Below, piece by piece: positions 3,640 to 63,748 of a DNA stretch of 64,000 nucleotides. Source of the stretch: an uncultured Candidatus Saccharibacteria bacterium (lineage in GTDB: Bacteria > Patescibacteriota > Minisyncoccia > UBA6257 > 2-01-FULL-56-20); assembly GCA_964505005.1 (NCBI GenBank), contig CAZDFQ010000004.1, positions 5,172-69,171 of the forward strand. The letters are read 5' to 3'. The notes below the pieces were generated by a model. The model saw nothing but the letters and a program-made list of their open reading frames with translations. It did no database searches and was not told the DNA's origin. The position numbers and the translations under genes are program-made. Positions within the stretch are counted from its first letter, which is position 1, and every line of letters starts with the position of its first letter.

Positions 3640-3763
3640 ATCCTAAATTCTAAATCCTAATTTCTAAACAATCTCAAATGACCAAAATCCAAAATTAAAA
3701 AGTTTTAAAAATTTGAAATTAGAATTTTGAAATTATTTAGGATTTAGAGATTAGAGATTTATC
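3640..3763. repeat. Palindromic MITE-like intergenic element, family A ('ctaaatcctaat / tctaaacaatctcaaat' arms)
   Basis: Left arm 'aatcctaaattctaaatcctaatttctaaacaatctcaaatg' and a near-reverse-complement right arm 'atttgaaattagaattttgaaattatttaggatttagagattagagattta'. Sits just upstream of the rsmA start. Confidence 0.6.
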
Positions 3764-10279: not shown

Positions 10280-10733
10280 ATCTCTAATCTCTAAATCCTA
10301 ATCTCTAAACAATCTCAAATGCTAAAAAACCAAAATGATAAACCATACGACTTAGAAAACAGAACTTTCGAATTTGCGCAAGGTGTTGTCAGTTATTTCA
10401 AAATACTTCCTAAAACTATTTCCAATGTAGAAATCGCAAAGCAGGGAATTCGCTCTGCCGCCTCGGTAGGCGCAAACTTTATTGAAGCTAATGAAGCATT
10501 AAGTAGGAAAGATTTTTTGATGAGAGTAAAAATCTGCAGAAAAGAAGTTAAAGAAACGATCTATTGGTTAAAATTATCAGAACCGAATGAGACGCAAAAG
10601 AATAAAACAGGATGAGCTTATCACTGAAGCGACTGAACTTATGAAAATATTCGGTGCAATTATTGAAAAATCGAAAAAATGATTTTGAGATTTGAAATTA
10701 TTTAGAAATTAGAGATTAGAATTTAGAGATTAT
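10280..10733. mobile_element. Family A inverted-repeat pair bracketing a four-helix-bundle gene (MITE-like cassette)
   Basis: Left arm 10280-10318 'taatctctaaatcctaatctctaaacaatctcaaat' runs straight into the ATG. Right arm 10679-10733 'gattttgagatttgaaattatttagaaattagagattagaatttagagatta' is its approximate reverse complement. Confidence 0.5.
10319..10615 (+). CDS. Four-helix-bundle protein (TIGR02436 / '23S rRNA intervening-sequence protein' family), frameshifted near its 3' end
   Basis: 'IRSAASVGANFIEANEALSRKDFLMRVKICRKEVKETIYWLKL' matches the family core. The expected C-terminal helix ('ELITEATELMKIFGAIIEKSKK*') continues in the +1 frame to 10680 after an A-run. Confidence 0.6.
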   Translation: MLKNQNDKPYDLENRTFEFAQGVVSYFKILPKTISNVEIAKQGIRSAASVGANFIEANEALSRKDFLMRVKICRKEVKETIYWLKLSEPNETQKNKTG

Positions 10734-12034: not shown

Positions 12035-12254
12035 ATCCTAATATCTAAATCCTCCAATTGGCAACGAGGAGAAAGTAAATGAGAATACATTTATTTTCGG
12101 CGAGCCCTGCCTGCCGGCAGGCAGGGAACCGATTGAGGAAGCGAAGCTTCATTAACAACCACAAAATTCAGATCTCAAAAATTTTCATTTTGGTCATTTA
12201 TAACATTTGGGCTTGTTTAGAGATTGGGGTTTAGAAATTAGATATTAACATAAG
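12035..12254. mobile_element. Family A MITE-like element with conserved ~120-bp core, inserted between the two VirB4 fragments
   Basis: Arms 'ctaaatcctaatatctaaatcc' and 'gtttagagattggggtttagaaattagatatta'. The core 'cctccaattggcaacgaggagaaagtaaatga...ttcattaacaa' is shared with the copy at 39833-40030. Confidence 0.55.
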
Positions 12255-17283: not shown

Positions 17284-17781
17284 CTATTCTTTTTTTTCTT
17301 GGGGCTGGGAATTTACCGGCTGTTTAGTTTGGCCGCCAGCGGCTTTTTCTTTAATTGGTTTAACCACCACGTAACGATTTTTGCCGGCGCCGACGCTTTC
17401 GGTGGTGACATCGGGGTGAATCGCCAACTCGATATGGATAAGGCGGCGCTCATAAGAATTCATAGCTGGCAAAGAAATTTCTTCTTCGGTGGCCACGGCT
17501 TTTCTGGCCGCGGCCCGGGCCAGTTCAGCAATAAGCCCTTCGCGCTCCCGGCGATAATTATTAATGTCAAAAAATAGCGGGGCTTCGTTTTCTTTTTTGG
17601 CAACCAGCTGGATAAGATGGTTCAAGGACTGAAGAATGGCCGGCAGATTTTCTTTTAAGAGGTGGGGGTGGTTATGGATGAAAATCCTGGCGTGCCGATG
17701 CCCCTCATCGAGTTCAAGGGTGTAGTCATCGAATCCAATCAATTCAATTATTTTTCTTGTAAAGGCTTCCTGGTTCTTCAT
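17284..17781 (-). CDS. jag: Jag/KhpB R3H-domain RNA-binding protein
   Basis: 'NSYERRLIHIELAIHPDVTTESVGAGKNRYVVVKP' is an R3H domain; position downstream of yidC is the conserved arrangement. Confidence 0.8.
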   Translation of the reverse strand: MKNQEAFTRKIIELIGFDDYTLELDEGHRHARIFIHNHPHLLKENLPAILQSLNHLIQLVAKKENEAPLFFDINNYRREREGLIAELARAAARKAVATEEEISLPAMNSYERRLIHIELAIHPDVTTESVGAGKNRYVVVKPIKEKAAGGQTKQPVNSQPQEKKE

Positions 17782-17796
17782 GCCCCGTAGGAAATA
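17775..17796. promoter_or_regulatory. 22-bp perfect inverted-repeat arm covering the jag start codon (partner at 18078-18099)
   Basis: 'tcttcatgccccgtaggaaata' is the exact reverse complement of 18078-18099. In the minus-strand transcript the pair would form a 22-bp stem that loops out 285 nt and buries the jag AUG. Confidence 0.5.
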
Positions 17797-18077
17797 AAAA
17801 TATTTCCGTAGTTATTGATTTAGGCCTTGAAAATAATATCGCAATCTCTGTTTAATGAACCTTTTGCCGACGCCAGTTTTGAAATATTTTTCTCTTTGTT
17901 TGGCGCCTTGTTCGTTGAGGCAGGCCTCATAATATATCAGTTTGAGGGGCCTCCTTGATTTCGTAGAAAACACCTTTCCGCTGGCGTGTTTTAGGAGCCG
18001 CCTTTGAAGATTATCTGTAAATCCCCCATATAACTTTCAGTCCTTCTGGCTTTGCAACAGATACACATAAAACATGC

Positions 18078-18099
18078 TATTTCCTACGGGGCATGAAGA
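18078..18099. promoter_or_regulatory. 22-bp inverted-repeat arm covering the yidC stop codon (partner of 17775-17796)
   Basis: 'tatttcctacggggcatgaaga'. Confidence 0.5.
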
Positions 18100-18797
18100 T
18101 GGGCTAATTGGCGGTTAACAATCTTCTGCTGAAAAATTGAAAAAAGAGAGCTGACGGCCCAGTACAAGCTTACCGCCGCCGGCAATTTCCAGAAAATAAG
18201 AAAGGTGATGATTGGAGCCATAAAAACCATTTGCCGGCCGATTTTTTCAGCCGAGCTCAATTCCCGGCTTTTATCTATTTTAGGCAAAGCTGTCCAGCCT
18301 TGAAGATACTGCAATAAAGCCGCCAGGCTCACCATCACAATACTCGTTTTTTCCAAGTTTATCAAGCCGAAAAGGGAGTAGTTTAAGGAACCAGGCGCTT
18401 TTATGAAAGGATAGAGGTCTTTTAATATTTCCGGCGTCAGGGGATTGAAAAATATTCGGTAGAGCGCAATGAGGACCGGCAATTGAACCAAAAGGAGGAG
18501 GAGCCCGGAAAGGGGATTGATATTGTGTTCCTGATAGAGCGCCATGGTCTTTTTAAGTTGTTCTTCTTTGTTGTCTTTATGCTCTCGCTGGATTTTCTCC
18601 AGTTTGGGTTGAATCTTTTGCATAAGCATCTGATGTTTGGTGCTTTTATGGAAAAGAGGGTAAAGGATGAGTCGAATAAAAATGGTCAAAAAAATTATGG
18701 CTAAACCGAAATTTTCAACGGCAATGGTGTTGTAGAAAAACACCAGAATATTTAAAAGCGGCTGATAAAAAATTAAATAATAGATGGAGCCAAGCAT
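18084..18797 (-). CDS. yidC: Membrane protein insertase YidC (short Oxa1-type form)
   Basis: Five TM helices, ~237 aa, conserved position between rnpA and jag. Confidence 0.8.
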   Translation of the reverse strand: MLGSIYYLIFYQPLLNILVFFYNTIAVENFGLAIIFLTIFIRLILYPLFHKSTKHQMLMQKIQPKLEKIQREHKDNKEEQLKKTMALYQEHNINPLSGLLLLLVQLPVLIALYRIFFNPLTPEILKDLYPFIKAPGSLNYSLFGLINLEKTSIVMVSLAALLQYLQGWTALPKIDKSRELSSAEKIGRQMVFMAPIITFLIFWKLPAAVSLYWAVSSLFSIFQQKIVNRQLAHLHAP

Positions 18798-19690: not shown

Positions 19691-21049
19691 ATGGAAAAAA
19701 ATCTTGAGCGCCTCTGGCAATCGGTTCTTAGCGAAATCGAGTCTCAGGTTTCGCGGGCTAATTTTGTTACTTGGCTAAAAAATAGTCGAATAGTTGACGA
19801 GCAGGACGGCGCCCTTTTTGTAATTTTGCCGAACAATTTTGCCAAAGAATGGGTAGAAAATAAATATCAGAAAAACCTTCTTGGTATTTGCCGGCAGTTT
19901 GATGATTCTATTAAAAAATTGGAATTCGTGGTTTCCGCCCAGAAAGCCGAGTTAGTAATTTCCAGAAAAAATCCGGTGGTTGTCGGCTTTGAAAACAAAA
20001 TGAATCTCGAGTTCCAAACCGACCAAGAGACCAGCCTTAATCCTCGTTATACTCTCAACTCTTTTGTTGTCGGTTCGTCGAACGAACTGGCGTTCAGCGC
20101 GGCCAATGCTGTTGTCCAAGGCGTCGGCACCAAATACAATCCGTTTTTTGTTTACGGCGGCGTGGGCCTTGGCAAAACCCATTTAATTCAAGCTATTGGC
20201 AACGAAATCAAGGCTCTTTACCGCGGCAAGGTAAGGCCCAAGTATGTGCCCTCAGAAAGATTCACCAGCGATGTTGTCTGGGCCATCCGGAATAAACGAA
20301 TGGAGGATATAAAAAAGAAATATCGCGACGTCGATGTCCTTATAATTGATGACATTCAATTCATCGGCGGCAAAGAAAAAACCGAAGAAGAATTTTTTCA
20401 TACTTTTAATGCGCTTTATGAAAACAACAAGCAGATTATTATTTCCTCGGACCGGCCGCCGCAGTCAATTCCGACCCTGGAAGAGCGGCTGCGGTCGCGA
20501 TTTGAGGGGGGCTTGATAGCTGATATTGTTTATCCGGAGTATGAAATGAGGGTGGCGATAATTAAAAGCAAGCTCCAAGAGAACAGTCGCGAATTAAAGG
20601 AGGAAATTATTGATTTAATCGCCCGCAAAGTAAAAAAGAATATCCGGGAACTGGAGGGGGTGCTGAATAAAATTCTTTTTTATCATGAAATGAAAGGTGT
20701 TCCGATTACCGAGAAGGCGGCTGAAGAAATAATTGAAAAATCCATTCAAAATTTCAGCCGGCGCGTTAGTGATTCCCAAATTATCAAGTCAGTGGCTGAA
20801 TTTTATAATATTTCGGTTGATGATTTAGTGGGGCAGGCTAGAAAAAAAGAAATTGTCGAGCCGCGCCAAATCGCCATGTATTTACTTCGGGATATGTTGG
20901 ATATGTCTTATCCTTACATCGGGGAAAAACTGGGGAAGGACCACACCACTGCCATTCACGCGGTAAGAAAAATAAACCAGGAAATCAACAGGAATTCTTC
21001 GTTAAACCAGAAGATTATTTCAATCAGAGAATTAATTTACGGCAACTAA
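19691..21049 (+). CDS. dnaA: Chromosomal replication initiator DnaA
   Basis: 'NPFFVYGGVGLGKTHL' Walker A, 'LIIDDIQF', and the C-terminal 'MYLLRDMLDMSYPYIGEKLGKDHTTAIHA' DnaA-box-binding domain. Confidence 0.95.
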   Translation: MEKNLERLWQSVLSEIESQVSRANFVTWLKNSRIVDEQDGALFVILPNNFAKEWVENKYQKNLLGICRQFDDSIKKLEFVVSAQKAELVISRKNPVVVGFENKMNLEFQTDQETSLNPRYTLNSFVVGSSNELAFSAANAVVQGVGTKYNPFFVYGGVGLGKTHLIQAIGNEIKALYRGKVRPKYVPSERFTSDVVWAIRNKRMEDIKKKYRDVDVLIIDDIQFIGGKEKTEEEFFHTFNALYENNKQIIISSDRPPQSIPTLEERLRSRFEGGLIADIVYPEYEMRVAIIKSKLQENSRELKEEIIDLIARKVKKNIRELEGVLNKILFYHEMKGVPITEKAAEEIIEKSIQNFSRRVSDSQIIKSVAEFYNISVDDLVGQARKKEIVEPRQIAMYLLRDMLDMSYPYIGEKLGKDHTTAIHAVRKINQEINRNSSLNQKIISIRELIYGN

Positions 21050-25216: not shown

Positions 25217-25513
25217 TGGATATTAATTCTTTGGTCCAAGCAGATTATTTTAAAAATAATCAGGCTGCCAAAACATAAGAAGGCCTCGACCTTTCCGAAA
25301 TTAAATAATTATTGTTCAATCTTATTGAGGGGAAAGAATTAGTTCTTTGCCAATCGCCGAATTTTTAATTTAAAAAGTATATGATAAAAAGGCCTTTTGT
25401 CAACCCCCACACCAATCGGTGCACAGATGAGGCAGATGCAACATCAGAGCCGCAAGGCGACTCGTCTTCTAATTGTGCCATTCCACTAAATTCTGCCGCG
25501 ATTGGCGTGGGGG

Positions 25514-25996: not shown

Positions 25997-26136
25997 ATTC
26001 TAAATCCGAAATCCTAATTTCTAAACAAATCCTAAATATCAAAATCCAAAATCCTAATAATCGAGACCCGTTTTTGGAATTTTTAATTTGGGGTTTTGGA
26101 ATTTGTTTAGGATTTAGATATTAGGATTTAGAGATT
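25997..26136. repeat. Family A palindromic MITE-like element between ruvC and yebC
   Basis: 'ctaaatccgaaatcctaatttctaaacaaatcctaaat...tttgtttaggatttagatattaggatttagagatta' with a short central spacer. Confidence 0.55.
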
Positions 26137-26662
26137 AGTTGCTGTTTGCATAGACCCTTTGGATATCATTATGGTCTTCGAGAACTTTTACAAGCGCAGC
26201 CAATTTGCTTTTGTCTTCTTCGTTAAGTTGCTGCGGAAACTTGGCTTGCCAGCCGCCGTCTTTTTGTTGGAAAGCCCAAGCCACGCTTCCAAACTCAGCC
26301 CATTTAGTGTTGTTTTCATTTAAAATTTTTTTAATTTCCGCGATGGTCCGGTTTTTGTTGTCAGTAGTCGCCTCGATTAAGAGCTGGCTGCCGGCTGGCC
26401 CGATGGCTCCTAATAAAAGTTCTTCAATAGCCGCGCCGGCCTCGTTCGCCCGCTTGATAGCGCGCTCGATATTTTCGTTCGGCACCTTGGCCTCTCTGGC
26501 TTTTTGAACAGCGGTTCGGAGCCGCGGGTTAAACTCCGGATTAGGGTCGGTTCTGGCCGCAATGCTGATGGCTGCCAATAGTTTGGAAAATATCTGGCCG
26601 CGCTTCTGATCAGCAATTCCTTTTTTATGTTTTATGCCACTCCAGTGGGAATGTCCGGACAT
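26135..26662 (-). CDS. YebC/PmpR family DNA-binding regulator (short form)
   Basis: 'MSGHSHWSGIKHKKGIADQKRGQIFSKL' is the YebC family N-terminus. Confidence 0.8.
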   Translation of the reverse strand: MSGHSHWSGIKHKKGIADQKRGQIFSKLLAAISIAARTDPNPEFNPRLRTAVQKAREAKVPNENIERAIKRANEAGAAIEELLLGAIGPAGSQLLIEATTDNKNRTIAEIKKILNENNTKWAEFGSVAWAFQQKDGGWQAKFPQQLNEEDKSKLAALVKVLEDHNDIQRVYANSN

Positions 26663-29563: not shown

Positions 29564-29675
29564 GCCCCGCACCTTTTCCAGAAATGATTCTGCTTTTGCC
29601 TAAATTTAAGGGCGGAATCGCCTACCGGCTCTGAATGGCGTTTAAAAACCATTCCTTCTGGAAAAGGTGCGGGGT
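29564..29675 (+). other. Long-range perfect 20-21-bp RNA stem enclosing ~72 nt with internal hairpins (candidate structured RNA / processing element)
   Basis: 'gccccgcaccttttccagaa' at 29564-29583 pairs with 'ttctggaaaaggtgcggggt' at 29656-29675. Inner hairpins 'gauucugc/gcggaauc' and 'gaaugg/ccauuc'. Confidence 0.35.
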
Positions 29676-29684
29676 AAGTACCTT

Positions 29685-29737
29685 GCCCCGTAGGAAGTGG
29701 CGAGAAAATATAAAGATATTTTTATTTCCTATGGGGC
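29685..29737 (+). other. Second hairpin with the 'gccccgtaggaa / ttcctatggggc' arms, the same motif as the yidC-jag inverted repeat
   Basis: 12-bp stem with one mismatch and a ~29-nt AT-rich loop. Confidence 0.35.
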
Positions 29738-30017
29738 TTGAAAAAAACAAAAATCGCCTCGAATCTGGGGGCTGCTACTCTGTCGCTAAAACAGAGAACC
29801 AGAAAACTCTTTTTAATAAATTTAAAAGAGGTTAGAATTGCTTTCGAGGATAGGCCTCGCTAGAGCCAAGCCGTCCTTAAAAACTAAAAGCCATTCCTGC
29901 CCCCAGGTTCGAGGCGGCCGAGCACATAAAATATATGTGCTTGGCAAACATATGTTATCATAAAAAATTTATCCTGTCAAGTCCTTAGAAGGGGCCGAAA
30001 CAAGAGGTTTTAAAAAA

Positions 30018-36153: not shown

Positions 36154-36752
36154 CTTCTCGCGCTTAAAATTTTTAAGGCGGCTTTCAGCCGCTCCTCCAA
36201 AGAAACGATTTTCTCGCCAACTTTTTCCAAAGCGGCTTTGGCCTGGTCCTTGCGGTAGCCGAGGCCGACCAGAGCTTCGACGATGTCCGCGTCGGATTCC
36301 ATTTTCCTAACTGCCTCCTCCGACTTTTCGGCTTTGACCTTGCTTTTTAACTCCACGATGATTCGCTCGGCGGTTTTCCGGCCAATGCCCGAAGCCCGGG
36401 TCAAAAGGTCGGGTCGGCCTTCTTTGATGGCCGCGGCCAAATCCTTCAATTCAGCCACCCCCAAAATCGCCAGCGCCGACTTGGGGCCGATACCGGCTAC
36501 CGAATTCAACATTTCAAAAAAGACCAGCTCTTCTTCGCTCAAGAACCCGTAGAGCTCAAAGGCGTTCTCGCGGCCGTAAAGATAAGAAAAGAATTTGACC
36601 TCCACGCCGAGCGGTGGCAAACTATGAAGCGTTCTTTCGGAAACGAAAATTTTGAAGCCAATGCCGCTTGTTTCCACGACCGCGAAATTATCAGTTTTTT
36701 GAGCGAGTTTCCCAGCAATGGTATAAAGCATATAAGTATTATAAATTATCAA
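36150..36752 (-). CDS. ruvA: Holliday junction DNA helicase RuvA
   Basis: ~200 aa, HhH motifs 'LNSVAGIGPKSA' and 'LTRASGIGRKTAERI'. Confidence 0.9.
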   Translation of the reverse strand: MIIYNTYMLYTIAGKLAQKTDNFAVVETSGIGFKIFVSERTLHSLPPLGVEVKFFSYLYGRENAFELYGFLSEEELVFFEMLNSVAGIGPKSALAILGVAELKDLAAAIKEGRPDLLTRASGIGRKTAERIIVELKSKVKAEKSEEAVRKMESDADIVEALVGLGYRKDQAKAALEKVGEKIVSLEERLKAALKILSARR

Positions 36753-36834
36753 TTTTCAATGCTCAATTTTCAATGAACCGAAAATTGAAAAACGGAATCA
36801 TTGATAATTGGAAATTGATAATCGATAATTTCCC
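36753..36834. repeat. Family C palindromic intergenic element ('tcaattttcaat / attgaaaa' units) in the ruvA/uvrB divergent region
   Basis: 'atcaattttcaatgctcaattttcaatgaaccgaaaattgaaaaacggaatcattgataattggaaattgataatcgataatt'. Confidence 0.5.
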
Positions 36835-39832: not shown

Positions 39833-40030
39833 ATGATTGAATCTCTAATTCCTAATCTCTAAATCCTCCAATTGGCAGCGAGGAGAAAGCAAATGAATTA
39901 GACATTTATTTTCGACGAGCGAACCAATTGATGAAATGAAGTTTCATTAACAAATCCAAAACTCAAATTTCAAAACGATTTAGAATTTTGGGTTTTGATA
40001 TTTGAGATTGTTTAGAGATTAGGGTTTAGA
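39833..40030. mobile_element. Family A MITE-like element with the conserved core (second copy of the virB4-splitting element)
   Basis: 'aatcctccaattggcagcgaggagaaagcaaatgaattagacatttattttcgacgagcg...gaagtttcattaacaaatcc' is co-linear with 12058-12170. Confidence 0.55.
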
Positions 40031-40032
40031 AA

Positions 40033-41715
40033 TTAGGATTTTTTATTAGCGGCTGTTTTAATGAATTCTCTGAACAGCGGGTGGGGATGAAGCGGTCGGG
40101 ACTTGAATTCTGGATGGAATTGAGTGCCGACGAAAAACGGATGGATGCTTCGGGGCAATTCCATAATTTCCATCAAACGCCGGTCCGGCGAAACTCCGGA
40201 AAAGATAAGGCCTTTTTTTTCTAGTTTTTCGATGTAGCGCGGATTGACTTCGTAGCGATGCCGATGCCGCTCGGAAATCGTCAGATAAGTCCTATTAGTC
40301 TTATAAGTGTTATAGGCAATCGTGTCTTTTTTTAAAACCGCCGGATAAGCACCCAGCCGCATGGTGGCGCCGTAATTCTTTTCAGCCAGCAACTTTTTCT
40401 GCTCAAGCATAACATCAATCACCGGCTCAGGGGTTCTTGGATTAATCTCCGTGGTGTGGGCCTTTTTAAGGCCCAAAACATTTCTGGAGAACTCGACAAC
40501 GGCGAGCTGCATTCCGTAACACAAACCAAGATAAGGGATTTTCTTTTCCCGGCAATAACGGATGGCCACAATTTTACCTTCTACGCCCCGGCCGCCAAAG
40601 CCTCCCGGAACGATTACGCCGTTGTATTTAGAAAGTTCTTTGATGCTCGCCGGATTCTTTTCAAACTGGCCGGAATTGAGCCAAATAATCTGCGGTCTGA
40701 CTTTGAGTTCGCCGCCGGCGTGCTTGATGGCTTCAATGACGGAGATGTAAGAATCCTCAAGAATAAAATCGCCGGTGCCGAAGTACTTGCCCACGATGCC
40801 GATTTTCACCGCTTTTTTGGAACGATTCATATCCAAAACCATTCTTCGCCATTCGCTCATATCCCGCCGCCTGGGTTTCAAATTGAGATTGCCGAGCAGG
40901 CGCTCACTCATCGCATCTTTTTCAAAATTGAGCGGCACTTCGTAGATATTCGAGACATTCGGCGCGGAAATGACATTGCCGTTGGCAATGCTGCACATAA
41001 ACTCGATTTTTTCTTTGCGCTTGCGGTCGAGCGGCACGCTGGCCCGGCCCAATATCATTTCCGGATGCAAACCAACCGCATTCAAGCTGCGCACCGCGTG
41101 TTGGGTGGGCTTGGTTTTGAGCTCAGTGCCGCCCGCGCCCAAAGCCGGCAGAAAGCTCACCAGCACCAGCATTACATCCGTCGGCTGTTTTATCTTGAGC
41201 ATCCGGATGGCTTCTAAAAAAAGAATGTTTTCGTATTCGCCGACCGTGCCGCCGATTTCCACGATAACAATGTCCGCCCGGCTTTTTCTGGCCGCGGTCT
41301 CAATCCGGCTGATAACTTCCAGGGGAATACGCGGGACCACTTCCACTTGCTTGCCGTCGTATTCGAGATTCCTTTCTTTCTGAATAACTGATAGATAAAC
41401 GCTGCCAGTGGTCATATAATTGGCCCTGGTCAGGTCGCGGTTCAAAAACCGCTCATAATTGCCCATGTCCTGGTCACATTCGGTGCCGTCATCAAGAACG
41501 AAAACCTCGCCGTGCTCGGTCGGACTCATAGTACCGGCGTCAACATTGACATAGGGATCAATTTTGACAGCCGTAACCTCAAACCCTCGCGATTGAAGTA
41601 TCTTGCCAATCGAAGAAGCGGCCACGCCCTTGCCGACGCCGGACATCACGCCGCCGACCACGAAGATATATTTTAGATTCTTTGTTTTAGGCATTGGTTT
41701 TGGCCTGCCCGCCAT
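40033..41715 (-). CDS. pyrG: CTP synthase
   Basis: 'VVGGVMSGVGKGVAASS' N-terminus and a C-terminal glutamine amidotransferase domain 'GLCYGMQ'. Confidence 0.95.
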   Translation of the reverse strand: MAGRPKPMPKTKNLKYIFVVGGVMSGVGKGVAASSIGKILQSRGFEVTAVKIDPYVNVDAGTMSPTEHGEVFVLDDGTECDQDMGNYERFLNRDLTRANYMTTGSVYLSVIQKERNLEYDGKQVEVVPRIPLEVISRIETAARKSRADIVIVEIGGTVGEYENILFLEAIRMLKIKQPTDVMLVLVSFLPALGAGGTELKTKPTQHAVRSLNAVGLHPEMILGRASVPLDRKRKEKIEFMCSIANGNVISAPNVSNIYEVPLNFEKDAMSERLLGNLNLKPRRRDMSEWRRMVLDMNRSKKAVKIGIVGKYFGTGDFILEDSYISVIEAIKHAGGELKVRPQIIWLNSGQFEKNPASIKELSKYNGVIVPGGFGGRGVEGKIVAIRYCREKKIPYLGLCYGMQLAVVEFSRNVLGLKKAHTTEINPRTPEPVIDVMLEQKKLLAEKNYGATMRLGAYPAVLKKDTIAYNTYKTNRTYLTISERHRHRYEVNPRYIEKLEKKGLIFSGVSPDRRLMEIMELPRSIHPFFVGTQFHPEFKSRPLHPHPLFREFIKTAANKKS

Positions 41716-43479: not shown

Positions 43480-43612
43480 ATATAAAAAATCCTAAATCCT
43501 AATCCCTAAATCCAAATGTTCTAAATTTAAAATGGGTTTAGAATTTTGGGTTTCGGTTATTTGTCCGCCACCCGGCGGATTGTTTAGAAATTAGGATTTA
43601 GAAATTAGAGAT
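43480..43612. repeat. Family A palindromic MITE-like element between mutM and the histidine kinase
   Basis: 'cctaaatcctaatccctaaatccaaat...ttgtttagaaattaggatttagaaattagagattta' with a 'ccgccacccggcgg' central palindrome. Confidence 0.55.
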
Positions 43613-44947
43613 TTATTCCATTATTGGTATTTCTCGTTGCGGCACCAGATTTTTGTCTGTCGGCAGAGTGAAATGGAAAACGCTGCCGCGATTTAGTTCT
43701 GACTCGGCTCCTATTTCCCCTCCATGAGTTCGGACTATGTTTCTGGCGATGTAAAGTCCGAGGCCGGTTCCCTCGGTCTGAAACTTTAGCGCATTGTCGG
43801 CCCGGAAGAATTTGCTGAAAAGTTTCTGCAGGTCTTCGGCCGGAACGCCGATGCCGGTGTCTTTCACGCTTACTTTCAAAAATGGCTTGTCGGGAATTTG
43901 TTCGGCCTTGACGATAACTTCGCCGTTTTTCACATTATAACGGATGGCATTATCCAAAAGATTGACGAGTACCAGGGAAAGTTTCCGGGTATCGGCAAAA
44001 ACCAACGGCAACTGCCCGGTTGGCGCATCGAAATAAAGCCGCACGCCGGCTTGATGCGCTTGAGGCGAAACTTGTTCAAGAATTTTATTCAAAAATTCTA
44101 CAAGATTAATTGGCTCGAAATTGTAGCCGAATTTACCTTCTTCAATTTTCGCCACGTCTAAAATATCCTCCACGGTTTTTACTAAAAGCTGGCTGGCCTC
44201 GAGCGCTTTCTTCGCAATCTCTCGATTATTATCACTTAGGTTTCTATCTGCCGCCAGGGCTTCGAGGGCCCAGGTGATGTTGGTCAGCGGTGTTTTGAGT
44301 TGGTGTGAAGCCACGGTTATAAATTCACTTTTTTCTTTTAAAAGAACGACTTCCCGGGTACGGTCGCGGATGATTTTCATGAATTTTTCCGGCTGACCTC
44401 CGGCAACTGCCGGACTGCCGAGCCTTGAGGTAATAATGCGGAATTCCAAAGCCGGCTCTTGGAAAGAGACATCGACAACCTGGGGCCACTCGCCGCTGGC
44501 CGACCGCGGGACCATTACCGGAGCCAGGGAAGGAAAAAGAGTTTGGACCAGAAGCTGGAGCTTAGGGTTCTCGGCATCCTGCGGCGAAATAGCTTTGCCT
44601 TCAACGCTGCCGGCGCCTATCCCAAAGAGTTTTTCAGCCGCTGGATTAAAAGAAATTATCCGGAAATCCTGGTCGTAAATAATCAGGGCGTCAGCCAGGC
44701 TGTCGATAAATTTCTTAAATTCCTGGTTTTTTCCGGCTGGCTCGCGGCTGGGCCGGCGGCCGCCGGCCCAGCTCAAGAAAAAGAAAATTACTATTCCTGA
44801 AATAAAGATGGCGTTCAGCCAACCCCATAAACCCGGCAGTCCCAACAGGCCAATCAGCAAAAGAACAATACCAAAAGTCAAAACCAGAAAAAGGTAGATA
44901 TAAGCCCGCCAGTCAGCGGTTTCAAAAAATCTTTTGAAAGCATTCAT
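43613..44947 (-). CDS. Sensor histidine kinase (PAS, HisKA, HATPase_c); no adjacent response regulator
   Basis: Two TM helices, H-box 'ASHQLKTPLTNI', and G-boxes 'DTGIGVP' and 'GTGLGL'. Confidence 0.85.
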   Translation of the reverse strand: MNAFKRFFETADWRAYIYLFLVLTFGIVLLLIGLLGLPGLWGWLNAIFISGIVIFFFLSWAGGRRPSREPAGKNQEFKKFIDSLADALIIYDQDFRIISFNPAAEKLFGIGAGSVEGKAISPQDAENPKLQLLVQTLFPSLAPVMVPRSASGEWPQVVDVSFQEPALEFRIITSRLGSPAVAGGQPEKFMKIIRDRTREVVLLKEKSEFITVASHQLKTPLTNITWALEALAADRNLSDNNREIAKKALEASQLLVKTVEDILDVAKIEEGKFGYNFEPINLVEFLNKILEQVSPQAHQAGVRLYFDAPTGQLPLVFADTRKLSLVLVNLLDNAIRYNVKNGEVIVKAEQIPDKPFLKVSVKDTGIGVPAEDLQKLFSKFFRADNALKFQTEGTGLGLYIARNIVRTHGGEIGAESELNRGSVFHFTLPTDKNLVPQREIPIME

Positions 44948-49293: not shown

Positions 49294-49370
49294 GTCCCCG
49301 TGGTGTAACTGGATAAGACGTCGGCCTCCGAAGCCGAAGATTGGCCGTTCAAGTCGGCCCGGGGACACCA
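49294..49370 (+). tRNA. tRNA-Arg (anticodon CCG), CCA encoded
   Basis: Acceptor 'GTCCCCG/CGGGGAC', anticodon arm 'TCGGC-CTCCGAA-GCCGA' (U33, CCG, A37), T-arm 'GGCCG-TTCAAGT-CGGCC', A20 and discriminator A, 3' 'ACCA'. Confidence 0.8.
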
Positions 49371-56551: not shown

Positions 56552-56593
56552 TCTGGCTTTTAAATTTGAAAATACCGCATTAGAATTGTTTCT

Positions 56594-56875
56594 ATGCCCG
56601 GTAGTACAACTTCGAACAGATATTATGTCGTCTATACGCTGGAAAGCAGAAAAGACGGGAAAAGATACATCGGCTTGACCACTAATCTCCAAAAGAGAAT
56701 CAAGGAACATAATATGGGAAAATCCTTTTCAACCAGCCCTCGCCGGCCATTCAAGCTCATTTACGCCGAACTCTGCCTTAATTCCGAAGACGCCAAAAAA
56801 AGAGAGCGTTATCTGAAAACCACCGGAGGTCGCCGGTTTTTAGCTAAACGGCTTCGAGCTTATTATTCCCAATAA
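56594..56875 (+). CDS. GIY-YIG nuclease family protein (YhbQ/UPF0213-like, 93 aa)
   Basis: 'YYVVYTLESRKDGKRYIGLTTNLQKRIKEHN' is the GIY-YIG motif. Confidence 0.7.
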   Translation: MPGSTTSNRYYVVYTLESRKDGKRYIGLTTNLQKRIKEHNMGKSFSTSPRRPFKLIYAELCLNSEDAKKRERYLKTTGGRRFLAKRLRAYYSQ

Positions 56876-56932
56876 TTCGAAGCCCAGTAGCACAACTTCG
56901 TTGTCCTACTGGGCGAAGTTGTCCTACCGGGT
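56596..56932. mobile_element. Small palindromic cassette carrying the GIY-YIG gene
   Basis: Left repeat 'cccggtagtacaacttcg' at 56597-56614 overlaps the start codon. The right end has a direct copy 'cccagtagcacaacttcg' and an inverted copy 'cgaagttgtcctaccggg' abutting the next ATG. Confidence 0.5.
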
Positions 56933-58255
56933 ATGCGGTTCATTGCCGATTTACAAATTCATTCCAAATACAGCCGGGCCACCTCCAAAGAAATGGTTTT
57001 GGAAGAAATCGACCGCTGGGCCGGCAACAAAGAGATTTTGGTGATGGGCACCGGCGATTTTACCCATCCGGCCTGGTTTGAAGAAATCAAACAAAAGCTT
57101 GAGCCAGCTGAACCCGGCCTTTTCAAATTAAAAAAAGAATTCAAGTGGCCGACATTGCGCGGCGACTTGTCGGAAACACGTTTCCTTTTGGAAGTGGAAA
57201 TCTCCGGAATTTATTCGCGCCCCTCGGCGCGGCTCGGGGCAAACAAGACCTATCGGATTCACAATCTGATTTTTGCGCCGGACTTAGAAACCGCGGAAAA
57301 AATCAACACTCAGCTCGGCTGGATAGGGAATTTGAAATCTGACGGTCGGCCGATTCTGGGGTTGGACTCCGAAGAACTAGCCAAAATCGTTTTTAATACC
57401 AATCCTCAGGCGGTGATTGTCCCGGCCCACGCCTTCACCCCATGGTTCAGCTTGTTTGGTTCGATGTCTGGTTTTGATTCAATTACAGAATGTTTTGGCG
57501 AATATACAAAATATATCTTTGCTATTGAGACCGGGCTGTCCGCGGATCCTTCGATGTGCTGGCGAATGTCTCAACTTGATAATATTTCCTTAATATCCAA
57601 TTCCGATTCGCACTCGCTTCAGCGCATTGGCCGCGAAGCCAATATCTTTGACACTGAGCTTTCCTATGAGGGGATAATTGACGCAATCAGGTCTCGCGAC
57701 CCTAAAAAATTTTTAGCCACCATTGAATTTTTTCCCGAAGAAGGCAAATACCATTTGGATGGCCACCGACTCTGCGGCGTGGTCTTCGAGCCGGGCGAGA
57801 CGAAAAAACATAACGGCATCTGTCCCAAGTGTGGCCGGAAGCTGACCATCGGAGTTCTGAACCGAGTGGAAGAATTGGCTGACCGGCCGCCAGTCAAAGT
57901 AGAGATAAGCGGCTATCTTCATAAATACGAAAACCGTGTGCCATTTTATAATCTGGTGGCTCTTGACGAGGTGATTGCCCAAGCTTACGGACTCGGCGTG
58001 GCTTCGCGAAAAGTCAAGTCCGAGTACGAAAACCTGATTAAAAAATTCGGCGGCGAATTCAAAGTTCTAATGGAAACAAATGTTGAGGAATTGCGGGCTG
58101 GCGGCGCGCCGGAAGAAATCATCAAGAGTATTGTCGCGGTGCGCGAGGGCGAGGTGAAATTCGAGCCGCCGGGCTTTGACGGCGAATACGGCAAAATTTC
58201 CATTTTCAGCGAAAACGAAAGAAAAGAAATCGAGCCGCAGAAATCGTTGTTTTAA
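56933..58255 (+). CDS. Endonuclease Q (PHP-domain deaminated-base endonuclease, TIGR00375 family)
   Basis: N-terminus 'IADLQIHSKYSRATSKEM...VMGTGDFTHPAWFEE', 'PAHAFTPWFSLFGS', and 'KYHLDGHRLCG...ICPKCGRKLTIGVLNRVEELAD' are co-linear with archaeal EndoQ, including its zinc finger. Confidence 0.8.
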   Translation: MRFIADLQIHSKYSRATSKEMVLEEIDRWAGNKEILVMGTGDFTHPAWFEEIKQKLEPAEPGLFKLKKEFKWPTLRGDLSETRFLLEVEISGIYSRPSARLGANKTYRIHNLIFAPDLETAEKINTQLGWIGNLKSDGRPILGLDSEELAKIVFNTNPQAVIVPAHAFTPWFSLFGSMSGFDSITECFGEYTKYIFAIETGLSADPSMCWRMSQLDNISLISNSDSHSLQRIGREANIFDTELSYEGIIDAIRSRDPKKFLATIEFFPEEGKYHLDGHRLCGVVFEPGETKKHNGICPKCGRKLTIGVLNRVEELADRPPVKVEISGYLHKYENRVPFYNLVALDEVIAQAYGLGVASRKVKSEYENLIKKFGGEFKVLMETNVEELRAGGAPEEIIKSIVAVREGEVKFEPPGFDGEYGKISIFSENERKEIEPQKSLF

Positions 58256-63710: not shown

Positions 63711-63748
63711 TTAATTAAGTGTTATGACGCGTCATAACATTTAATTAA
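63711..63748. promoter_or_regulatory. 38-bp near-perfect palindrome (candidate operator) in a divergent promoter region
   Basis: 'ttaattaagtgttatgacgcgtcataacatttaattaa' has one mismatch and a perfect 18-bp core 'gttatgacgcgtcataac'. Confidence 0.5.

Follow-up and report, generated by a model that had tools for sequence, protein, structure and literature searches.

An inverted repeat between yidC and jag in a Candidatus Saccharibacteria bacterium and the GIY-YIG mini-element whose ends it probably represents

Why should a perfect 22-nt inverted repeat span the gap between yidC and jag, with one of its arms placed on the jag start codon? The question is raised by a stretch of 64,000 nucleotides from an uncultured Candidatus Saccharibacteria bacterium (assembly GCA_964505005.1, contig CAZDFQ010000004.1, positions 5,172 to 69,171), which is referred to here as the window. 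An earlier note on this DNA regarded the repeat as an mRNA device around a non-coding insert. We arrive at a different answer: very probably, the repeat marks either end of a mobile mini-element, 309 bp in length, whose only gene is for a single-domain GIY-YIG nuclease of ~87 aa. This element, designated W1 (17783..18091, minus strand), has CCCC...GGGG termini and was delimited in an inverted-repeat scan that took flanking direct repeats into account. Loci used for comparison carry L numbers.

The yidC-jag locus and its empty counterparts

On the minus strand, the gene order reads rpmH, rnpA, yidC (18797..18084), the insert and jag (17781..17284), with dnaA diverging at 19691. yidC is matched by Pfam 60KD_IMP (E=1e-45) and jag, which encodes an R3H-domain protein, by Pfam R3H (E=2e-17); homologues of the latter carry the JGI name 'spoIIIJ-associated protein / Jag'. 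The 22-nt arms lie at 17775-17796 (TCTTCATGCCCCGTAGGAAATA) and 18078-18099 and are 100% complementary. The proximal arm includes the jag ATG (17779-17781, minus strand) and the yidC stop codon TAG (18084-18086) resides inside the distal arm. On the arms and the two codons they cover the earlier note was accurate; for the insert length it gave 285 nt, where we measure 281 nt between the arms. A perfect inverted repeat of 22 nt with its arms within 500 nt of each other has a chance expectation of ~2e-6 per 64 kb (3.2e7 position pairs x 4^-22), and the core GCCCNGTAG is present in six copies in the window as compared with 1.0 expected, a number reached in 0/100 shuffles.

The suspicion that the spacer between the two genes had been inserted is borne out by related genomes. 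The two genes overlap by 38-53 nt in four related Candidatus Liptonbacteria genomes (L003, L088, L089 and L090), and neither a nuclease gene nor arms are present there. The YidC of L003 is 73% identical. The note would have given up its view for relatives that keep the same spacer minus the complementary arms; what we find instead is relatives that lack the spacer altogether. In all five relatives jag begins with ATGAAGAA(C/T), so that the ATGAAGA within the proximal arm is native jag sequence. When 17783-18091 and one copy of CATG are removed in silico, the junction becomes ...GCCCATCTTCATGAAGAACCAGG... and the YidC tail is restored to ...HLHEEPGSLYKKNN followed by a stop, matching L090 and L003. 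The restored protein, reading ...NRQLAHLHEEPGSLYKKNN, terminates at the same position as L090 (...NKQLKSNEESGSIRKENN; the ends compared are ...KKNN and ...KENN, each followed by a stop) and resembles L003 (...NRQLKSNEEPGNSRKKNN...). Judged by this comparison, W1 landed exactly on the jag start codon, within the natural overlap of yidC and jag. It was through the insertion that the natural C-terminal tail of YidC was replaced by the present ...AP ending, while jag keeps its ATG because CATG is duplicated around W1.

The 22-nt repeat is therefore composite and comprises a 14-bp terminal inverted repeat, the palindromic CATG duplication and 4 bp of host sequence. In gene orientation, the 5' terminal repeat, CCCCGTAGGAAATA on the minus strand, occupies 18078..18091 and recurs in relatives, and its 3' counterpart, TATTTCCTACGGGG on the same strand, occupies 17783..17796. 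The right copy of CATG (17779..17782) holds the native jag start codon (ATG, 17781..17779, minus strand), which is common to the five relatives, and the left copy is found at 18092..18095. The adjoining host bases AAGA (17775..17778, minus strand) belong to jag codons 2-3. They appear to complement TCTT at 18096-18099 by coincidence, lengthening the repeat from 18 to 22 nt; TCTT itself, upstream of CATG, is probably native yidC sequence. The 5' terminal repeat not only contributes the new yidC stop TAG but also holds an AGGA motif resembling a Shine-Dalgarno sequence, 7 nt ahead of the nuclease ATG.

A second case comes from the same gene junction. In L091, which represents another Liptonbacteria lineage and is closely related to the empty L090, an element without a gene is found at the exact jag ATG (L091 1081-1202). 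Its arms, ATCCCATTAGAGACA and TGTCTCTAACGGGAT, belong to an arm subfamily different from that of W1. TGAA/ATGAA stands on both sides of the element and is single-copy in the empty site of L090, the junctions having been read by eye and with a repeat search. Here, too, yidC ends on a TAG within the left arm. On sequence evidence, the L091 element is an independent second insertion at the jag start site.

Presence and absence with a precise empty site is seen three times: for W1 compared with L003, L088, L089 and L090, for L091 compared with L090, and for L092 compared with L103 and L104. The host protein at L092 has 341 aa, and nearly all of its homologues among the matches listed have 340-343 aa. 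L103 and L104 start at the same ATG as the L092 host gene without an element, and the upstream flank of L104 resembles the sequence left of the L092 element; relatives of the L092 host gene reach only about 65% identity. The lengths and starts of the homologues show that the right-hand ATG at L092 is the native start.

The nuclease gene and the element family

The insert had been described as non-coding. However, its minus strand holds a frame of 87 codons plus stop (18075..17812) that translates as MFYVYLLQSQKD, a stop, KLYGGFTDNLQRRLLKHASGKVFSTKSRRPLKLIYYEACLNEQGAKQREKYFKTGVGKRFIKQRLRYYFQGLNQ and the terminal stop. With G placed at the internal stop, the product matches Pfam PF01541 with E=1.1e-14 as its sole Pfam domain. 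The insert is best read as a protein-coding mobile element and not as a non-coding or 'processed' RNA. At E<=1e-5 the W1 nuclease has 1308 homologues; those among the 120 matches listed measure 78-120 aa, and the named sources among them are mainly Patescibacteria/Parcubacteria metagenomes. Y5, Y16, R26 and E62 are invariant across 30 nuclease homologues. UPF0213 proteins (1zg2 and 1ywl) are the nearest solved structures, and SLX1 is matched weakly. No family is assigned to the nuclease by NCBIfam, where TIGR01453 (group I intron endonuclease) reaches 24 bits against a cut-off of 56, and no homologues at E<=1e-8 were found on plasmids.

The internal stop is a TGA at codon 13 (18037..18039, minus strand). 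Most aligned homologues have Gly at this position (consensus KDGKLY), with N, S, K, M or C in a minority. An alternative genetic code with TGA read as Gly (code 25) was considered and rejected: TGA ends 13 of the 47 long open reading frames (ORFs) in the window, and code 11 leaves the long genes intact. A sequencing error was likewise rejected, two independent assemblies being identical. Because TGA is an ordinary stop in the window and both assemblies share the same base, the W1 copy (17812..18075) is a recently inactivated pseudogene.

The length of W1 is matched (304-310 bp) in L008, L011, L012, L092, L097, L100 and L102. W1-type copies have the AGGA motif in the arm, 7-9 nt ahead of the nuclease's own ATG. 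A short leader peptide ending before that ATG (MPRRK and a stop) was considered as a general feature and dismissed, since it is present in W1, L011, L012 and L097 and not in L008, L092, L100 and L102. Just inside the 3' arm of W1-type elements a local hairpin, cGGAAAATAyttTATTTCC (window 17797-17830), is conserved, and it is also seen at the 3' ends of the seven length-matched elements. The inner half of the 3' arm thus has two possible pairing partners, one close by and one in the distant 5' arm.

About 95 family loci from other metagenomes were collected; an inverted-repeat survey covered 80 metagenome loci and a core survey 82 family loci. At most of the 80 loci an inverted repeat spans the nuclease gene. 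The core CCNGT...ACNGG is present in 56 of the 82 loci, where it encloses 265-430 bp, and on either side the conservation within the family breaks off sharply 5 nt beyond the core (consensus TTYAC·CCCGT...ACGGG·GTRAA). The two arms co-vary, with a match of 0.75 within an element and of 0.52 across loci. From these comparisons, the arms belong to the nuclease gene family and not to jag. In L012 (about 2779-2815), and also in L010, L013, L036 and L041, element ends adjoin further arms, as in ...CCTACGGGG TATG CCCCGTAGG..., and in L012 the tandem arms have one TATG in common. Such arrangements resemble a circle junction or the outcome of tandem or nested insertion at the YATG/CC boundary of the element itself.

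Flanking repeats, start codons and further elements in the window

Fourteen elements of the window subfamilies could be resolved (W1, W2, L008, L009, L011, L012, L013, L027, L067, L078, L092, L097, L100 and L102). Eleven of them have identical 4-bp flanks and one more has a 3-bp match; the flanks are mostly TATG, and also CATG and ATGA. After 11 of the 14 elements, an ATG at +1 or +2 opens an ORF of 125-440 aa on the same strand. The host genes abutted in this way are unrelated to each other and include jag and genes for PHP-like, sigma-70-like, His-phosphatase, NUDIX and glycosyltransferase-4 proteins; a further one, with the N-terminus MTRKKIGLALGGG..., is patatin-like by eye only. Four of these elements were fetched independently through the closest protein homologues, and in all four the distance from the nuclease stop to the called host gene is 27-30 nt, which is also the spacing at jag. 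Family-wide, a same-strand ORF starts <=12 nt from the 3' end in 17 of 50 cases as compared with 4.6% of random positions; an intergenic-only control would be less extreme. Four of 11 abutted host genes (those at L011, L097, L100 and L102) begin with ATGCC (Met-Pro), like the left end of the element, ATGCCCC, which may point to microhomology or to a preferred target longer than ATG. One window-type element lies off a start codon: L009 (about 2430-2480) is located just downstream of what by eye is a tRNA-like 3' end (...GGTTCGATTCCGCTCACCCGCTCCA).

W1 is not the only such element in the window. A window-wide scan for inverted repeats starting with CCC, ending with GGG and bounded by identical 4-bp flanks returned five elements compared with 0.05 expected, and at most one was found in any of 40 shuffles. 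Two carry the gene and three are gene-less. Besides W1 (17783-18091, flank CATG, GIY-YIG pseudogene), the gene-bearing class comprises W2, an element of 335 bp (56597..56931, plus strand) with the arms CCCGGTAGTACAACTTCG and CGAAGTTGTCCTACCGGG, flanked by TATG at 56593-56596 and 56932-56935. Its GIY-YIG ORF is intact (56594..56875, plus strand, 93 aa) and 56% identical to the W1 copy; an exact-sequence look-up of the protein gave no record. The sole in-frame start of this ORF is the ATG of the left TATG repeat and the 5' arm is therefore translated (MPGSTTSNR...). The nuclease ORFs of L027 and P0053 likewise start only at the left duplicated ATG. At the ATG of the right TATG begins a host gene for a protein of 440 aa with a weak PHP_C match (56933..58255, plus strand). 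Just inside the 3' arm of W2 lies an arm-like hairpin, GCCCAGTAGCACAAC ttc GTTGTCCTACTGGGC (56882..56914), with a 15-bp stem and a 3-nt loop. It consists of two copies of the W2-type arm, so that three arm copies stand in a row when the 3' arm of W2 is included.

The smallest gene-less element measures 51 bp (29686..29736), has W1-type arms (CCCCGTAGGAA and TTCCTATGGGG), is flanked by CTTG (29682-29685 and 29737-29740) and has 'ATATTTTTA' in common with the 3' end of W1. It accounts for the separate hairpin that the earlier note had pointed out at 29685-29737, which is indeed present. The other two are 110 bp long. One, at 29565..29674, has 19-nt perfect arms (CCCCGCACCTTTTCCAGAA) and TAAG flanks, the left of which contains the stop codon of a T2SSE ATPase gene; the other, at 25404..25513, has the arms CCCCCACACCAATCG and TCAA flanks, the right of which contains the ruvC stop codon (minus strand). 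Placement at gene boundaries therefore extends to stop codons. Homology between the two 110-bp elements was considered and rejected, as only termini, length and a central GC-rich patch are common to both.

A possible mechanism, its rivals and known systems

How might such an element move? By analogy with the Ssn nucleases introduced below, the encoded nuclease would recognise the two arms when these are paired in single-stranded DNA (ssDNA) and would cut each of the strands within the flank. The movement could then be completed by replication or repair functions of the host, leaving the 4-bp duplication. By landing after a host ATG, the promoter-less nuclease gene would borrow the promoter and the ribosome-binding site of the host gene and, in the case of W2, also its start codon, while the duplication would regenerate the host ATG. 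The mRNA stem over the jag AUG would then be a side effect of the element termini.

Several observations weigh against this reading. To our knowledge, GIY-YIG enzymes cannot join DNA and none is known to catalyse strand transfer. The nearest empty sites stand at ~80% protein identity, with none closer in the collections searched, and the native state of TCTT is read from these only. At the 51-bp element (29686) there is no obvious start codon, and its right flank opens only a 41-aa ORF, which was not counted. In the bulk of the family (L014-L087), which has inverted TTYAC...GTRAA termini, no flanking direct repeat was found; these distant members may insert differently from the window subfamilies. 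Finally, the YATG flank could be a required shared core, as in site-specific or microhomology-mediated insertion, and not the duplication left by a staggered cut. The predominance of YATG among the flanks, together with the CC that follows the ATG in four of 11 host genes, makes this a live alternative. Tandem arms sharing one TATG (L012; similarly L010, L013, L036 and L041) fit either a duplication or a core site.

The mRNA device proposed in the earlier note, a 22-bp duplex with the spacer as its loop that would conceal the jag start, serve as a target of RNase III and possibly yield an RNA of ~285 nt, has some points in its favour. The predicted fold contains the closing stem over the jag AUG in both the minimum-free-energy (-100.2 kcal/mol) and the centroid structure, and since no promoter-like site was found inside the insert, both arms are probably on one transcript, with the yidC stop in the left arm and the jag AUG in the right. 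According to this model, formation of the stem is plausible if yidC and jag are co-transcribed, and to this extent the proposed duplex stands. One may even speculate that ribosomes finishing yidC could open the stem, as the stop lies within the left arm, and so keep the coupling of the ancestral overlap. As the purpose of the arms, however, the duplex does not hold. The same arms bracket the same nuclease gene family beside unrelated host genes in many organisms and therefore did not evolve to regulate jag. Moreover, the 'loop' contains a gene for a protein, no spacer exists in the ancestral state, the z-score for the fold of the whole segment is only -2.2, and an Rfam scan of the window returned a tRNA at 49294 only and nothing at the yidC-jag region. 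We thus regard it as very unlikely that the repeat is primarily an mRNA device.

Highly doubtful, too, is a resident, non-mobile system of the Ssn/NTS type, in which the nuclease would serve the host, for example by restricting incoming ssDNA, and the arms would be recognition sites around its own gene. Such a role has experimental support for SsnA of Neisseria meningitidis (Nm SsnA) and the NTS (PMC11893778), and the nuclease described here has the same size and catalytic spacing as that enzyme. Yet presence and absence at three loci, two independent insertions at the jag ATG, duplications and gene-less derivatives indicate movement, the W1 copy is a pseudogene, and the published recognition pattern is practically missing from the family loci, as detailed below. 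Note that mobility and a host function can coexist. Least credible to us is the idea that W1 and its relatives are passive cassettes or miniature inverted-repeat transposable elements, for whose movement an unrelated enzyme, a transposase or recombinase with its gene elsewhere, would be responsible, with the GIY-YIG gene as cargo. The existence of gene-less copies with the same termini and flanks speaks for it, as does the point, already mentioned, that GIY-YIG enzymes are not known for strand transfer. On the other hand, arms and nuclease co-vary by subfamily at >50 loci in different organisms, which argues for a specific relationship between protein and ends, as for Ssn and its motif, and no transposase was seen next to about 95 family loci, the flanks of which are partly annotated only. 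Weighing all this, we retain the mobile mini-element as the preferred explanation.

Which known systems come closest? The only related description found in a literature search is that of the Ssn family (Chenal et al., Nat Commun 2025, PMC11893778), with which single-domain GIY-YIG nucleases that have their own flanking repeats were first described, in 2025, as ssDNA nucleases. Nm SsnA has 94 aa and the catalytic residues Y6/Y17/E64. Ssn nucleases bind their hairpin repeat (NTS/SRM) only as ssDNA and cut a few nucleotides upstream, and ssn genes are flanked by their own repeats; the authors liken the NTS-ssnA-NTS arrangement to an insertion sequence and speculate that it is a domesticated one, mobility being only hypothesised (PMC11893778). 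The elements studied here share the single-domain architecture (87-93 aa compared with 94 aa; Y5/Y16/E62 compared with Y6/Y17/E64), the flanking of the gene on both sides by an own inverted-repeat motif and the presence of extra motif copies elsewhere in the genome. They differ in that, on either side of an ssn gene, the motif folds into a local hairpin of 20-50 nt by itself, whereas in most loci analysed here each side provides one half, and the nuclease gene therefore sits in the 'loop'. They also differ in their hosts, Patescibacteria here and mainly Pseudomonadati for Ssn, and in the signs of movement, which comprise empty sites, duplicated flanks and gene-less derivatives, as well as in the placement at start codons. 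The published SRM pattern, HGTCWYN(0-2)YYVSBRHN(0-5)WNVSBRGN(0-2)RNCYNB, has no match in the 64-kb window and one in 265 kb comprising 82 family loci; strict SRM 5' half-sites are absent from the arms, and the relaxed pattern gives 2/56. The likeness that the eye perceives between TTCAC·CCCGTGA and GTCAT·TCCCGCG failed statistically. From these sequence features we describe the element as Ssn-like, a new variant and not a proven member of the Ssn family.

Other systems share single aspects. Like IS200/IS605 and REP/RAYT elements, those described here are very small and have hairpin-forming ends of the kind recognised as ssDNA, gene-less repeat copies and short specific sites. Unlike the former, which use a Y1 HUH transposase (TnpA), proceed through covalent intermediates and leave no target duplication, they contain between their arms a GIY-YIG domain (PF01541) as the only ORF and neither a Y1 HUH transposase nor a RAYT; identical 4-bp flanks at all five window elements (5/5) also speak against an IS200/IS605-type insertion without duplication. 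With GIY-YIG homing endonucleases (I-TevI, SegA-G) they have in common a selfish nuclease gene between or before host genes and a spread presumably via host repair. Homing endonucleases, however, have ~200-250 aa with a separate DNA-binding domain, as opposed to 87-93 aa and a catalytic domain only, and come without terminal inverted repeats, flanking duplications and gene-less derivatives. The gene-less copies of 51 and 110 bp, with terminal inverted repeats, short duplications and a strong hairpin potential (z = -7.7), are reminiscent of miniature inverted-repeat transposable elements; known bacterial representatives derive from insertion sequences with DDE transposases, whereas the termini found here match a GIY-YIG-encoding element.

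The single yidC-jag locus is thereby explained, while little has been reported on the class of element, on its apparent mobility and on its start-codon placement. The present comparison adds direct evidence of movement: sites without the element, duplicated flanks, copies lacking the gene and two independent insertions at one site. The very precise placement at start codons is unexpected, and it is seen in genome-reduced Patescibacteria, a group in which little mobile DNA is expected. If the nuclease drives the movement, this would be a new, extremely compact kind of mobile element, it would account for many small genes annotated as "GIY-YIG nuclease family protein" in the genomes of candidate phyla, and it would provide natural pairs of enzyme and site for ssDNA tools. 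We tentatively go further and suggest, as a possibility against which the balance still leans, that these are the smallest autonomous bacterial mobile elements yet seen (~305-340 bp with one 87-aa nuclease), acting as 'start-codon traps' whose termini serve both as ssDNA recognition hairpin and as mRNA stem that keeps the insertion tolerable, and that Ssn-type nucleases are, or derive from, enzymes of a transposon class. If true, this would be the first evidence for such a relationship. For annotation, the consequence is that spacers of this kind should not be read as regulatory RNAs.

The window contains further palindromes apart from those discussed: a perfect GC-rich palindrome of 26 nt at 44747-44772 (GCTGGGCCGGCGGCCGCCGGCCCAGC), an AT-rich imperfect inverted repeat of 30 nt at 36738-36829 and a near-palindrome of 38 nt at 63711-63748. 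Another family of repeats, distinct from these and with a period of 7 nt (TAATCTCTAAATCCTAA), gives 17 matches with <=3 mismatches as compared with 0.19 expected. These repeats are located at 3644-3753, 10285-10732, 12039-12247, 26107-26137, 39839-40035 and 43500-43614, mostly in inverted pairs 70-400 nt apart.

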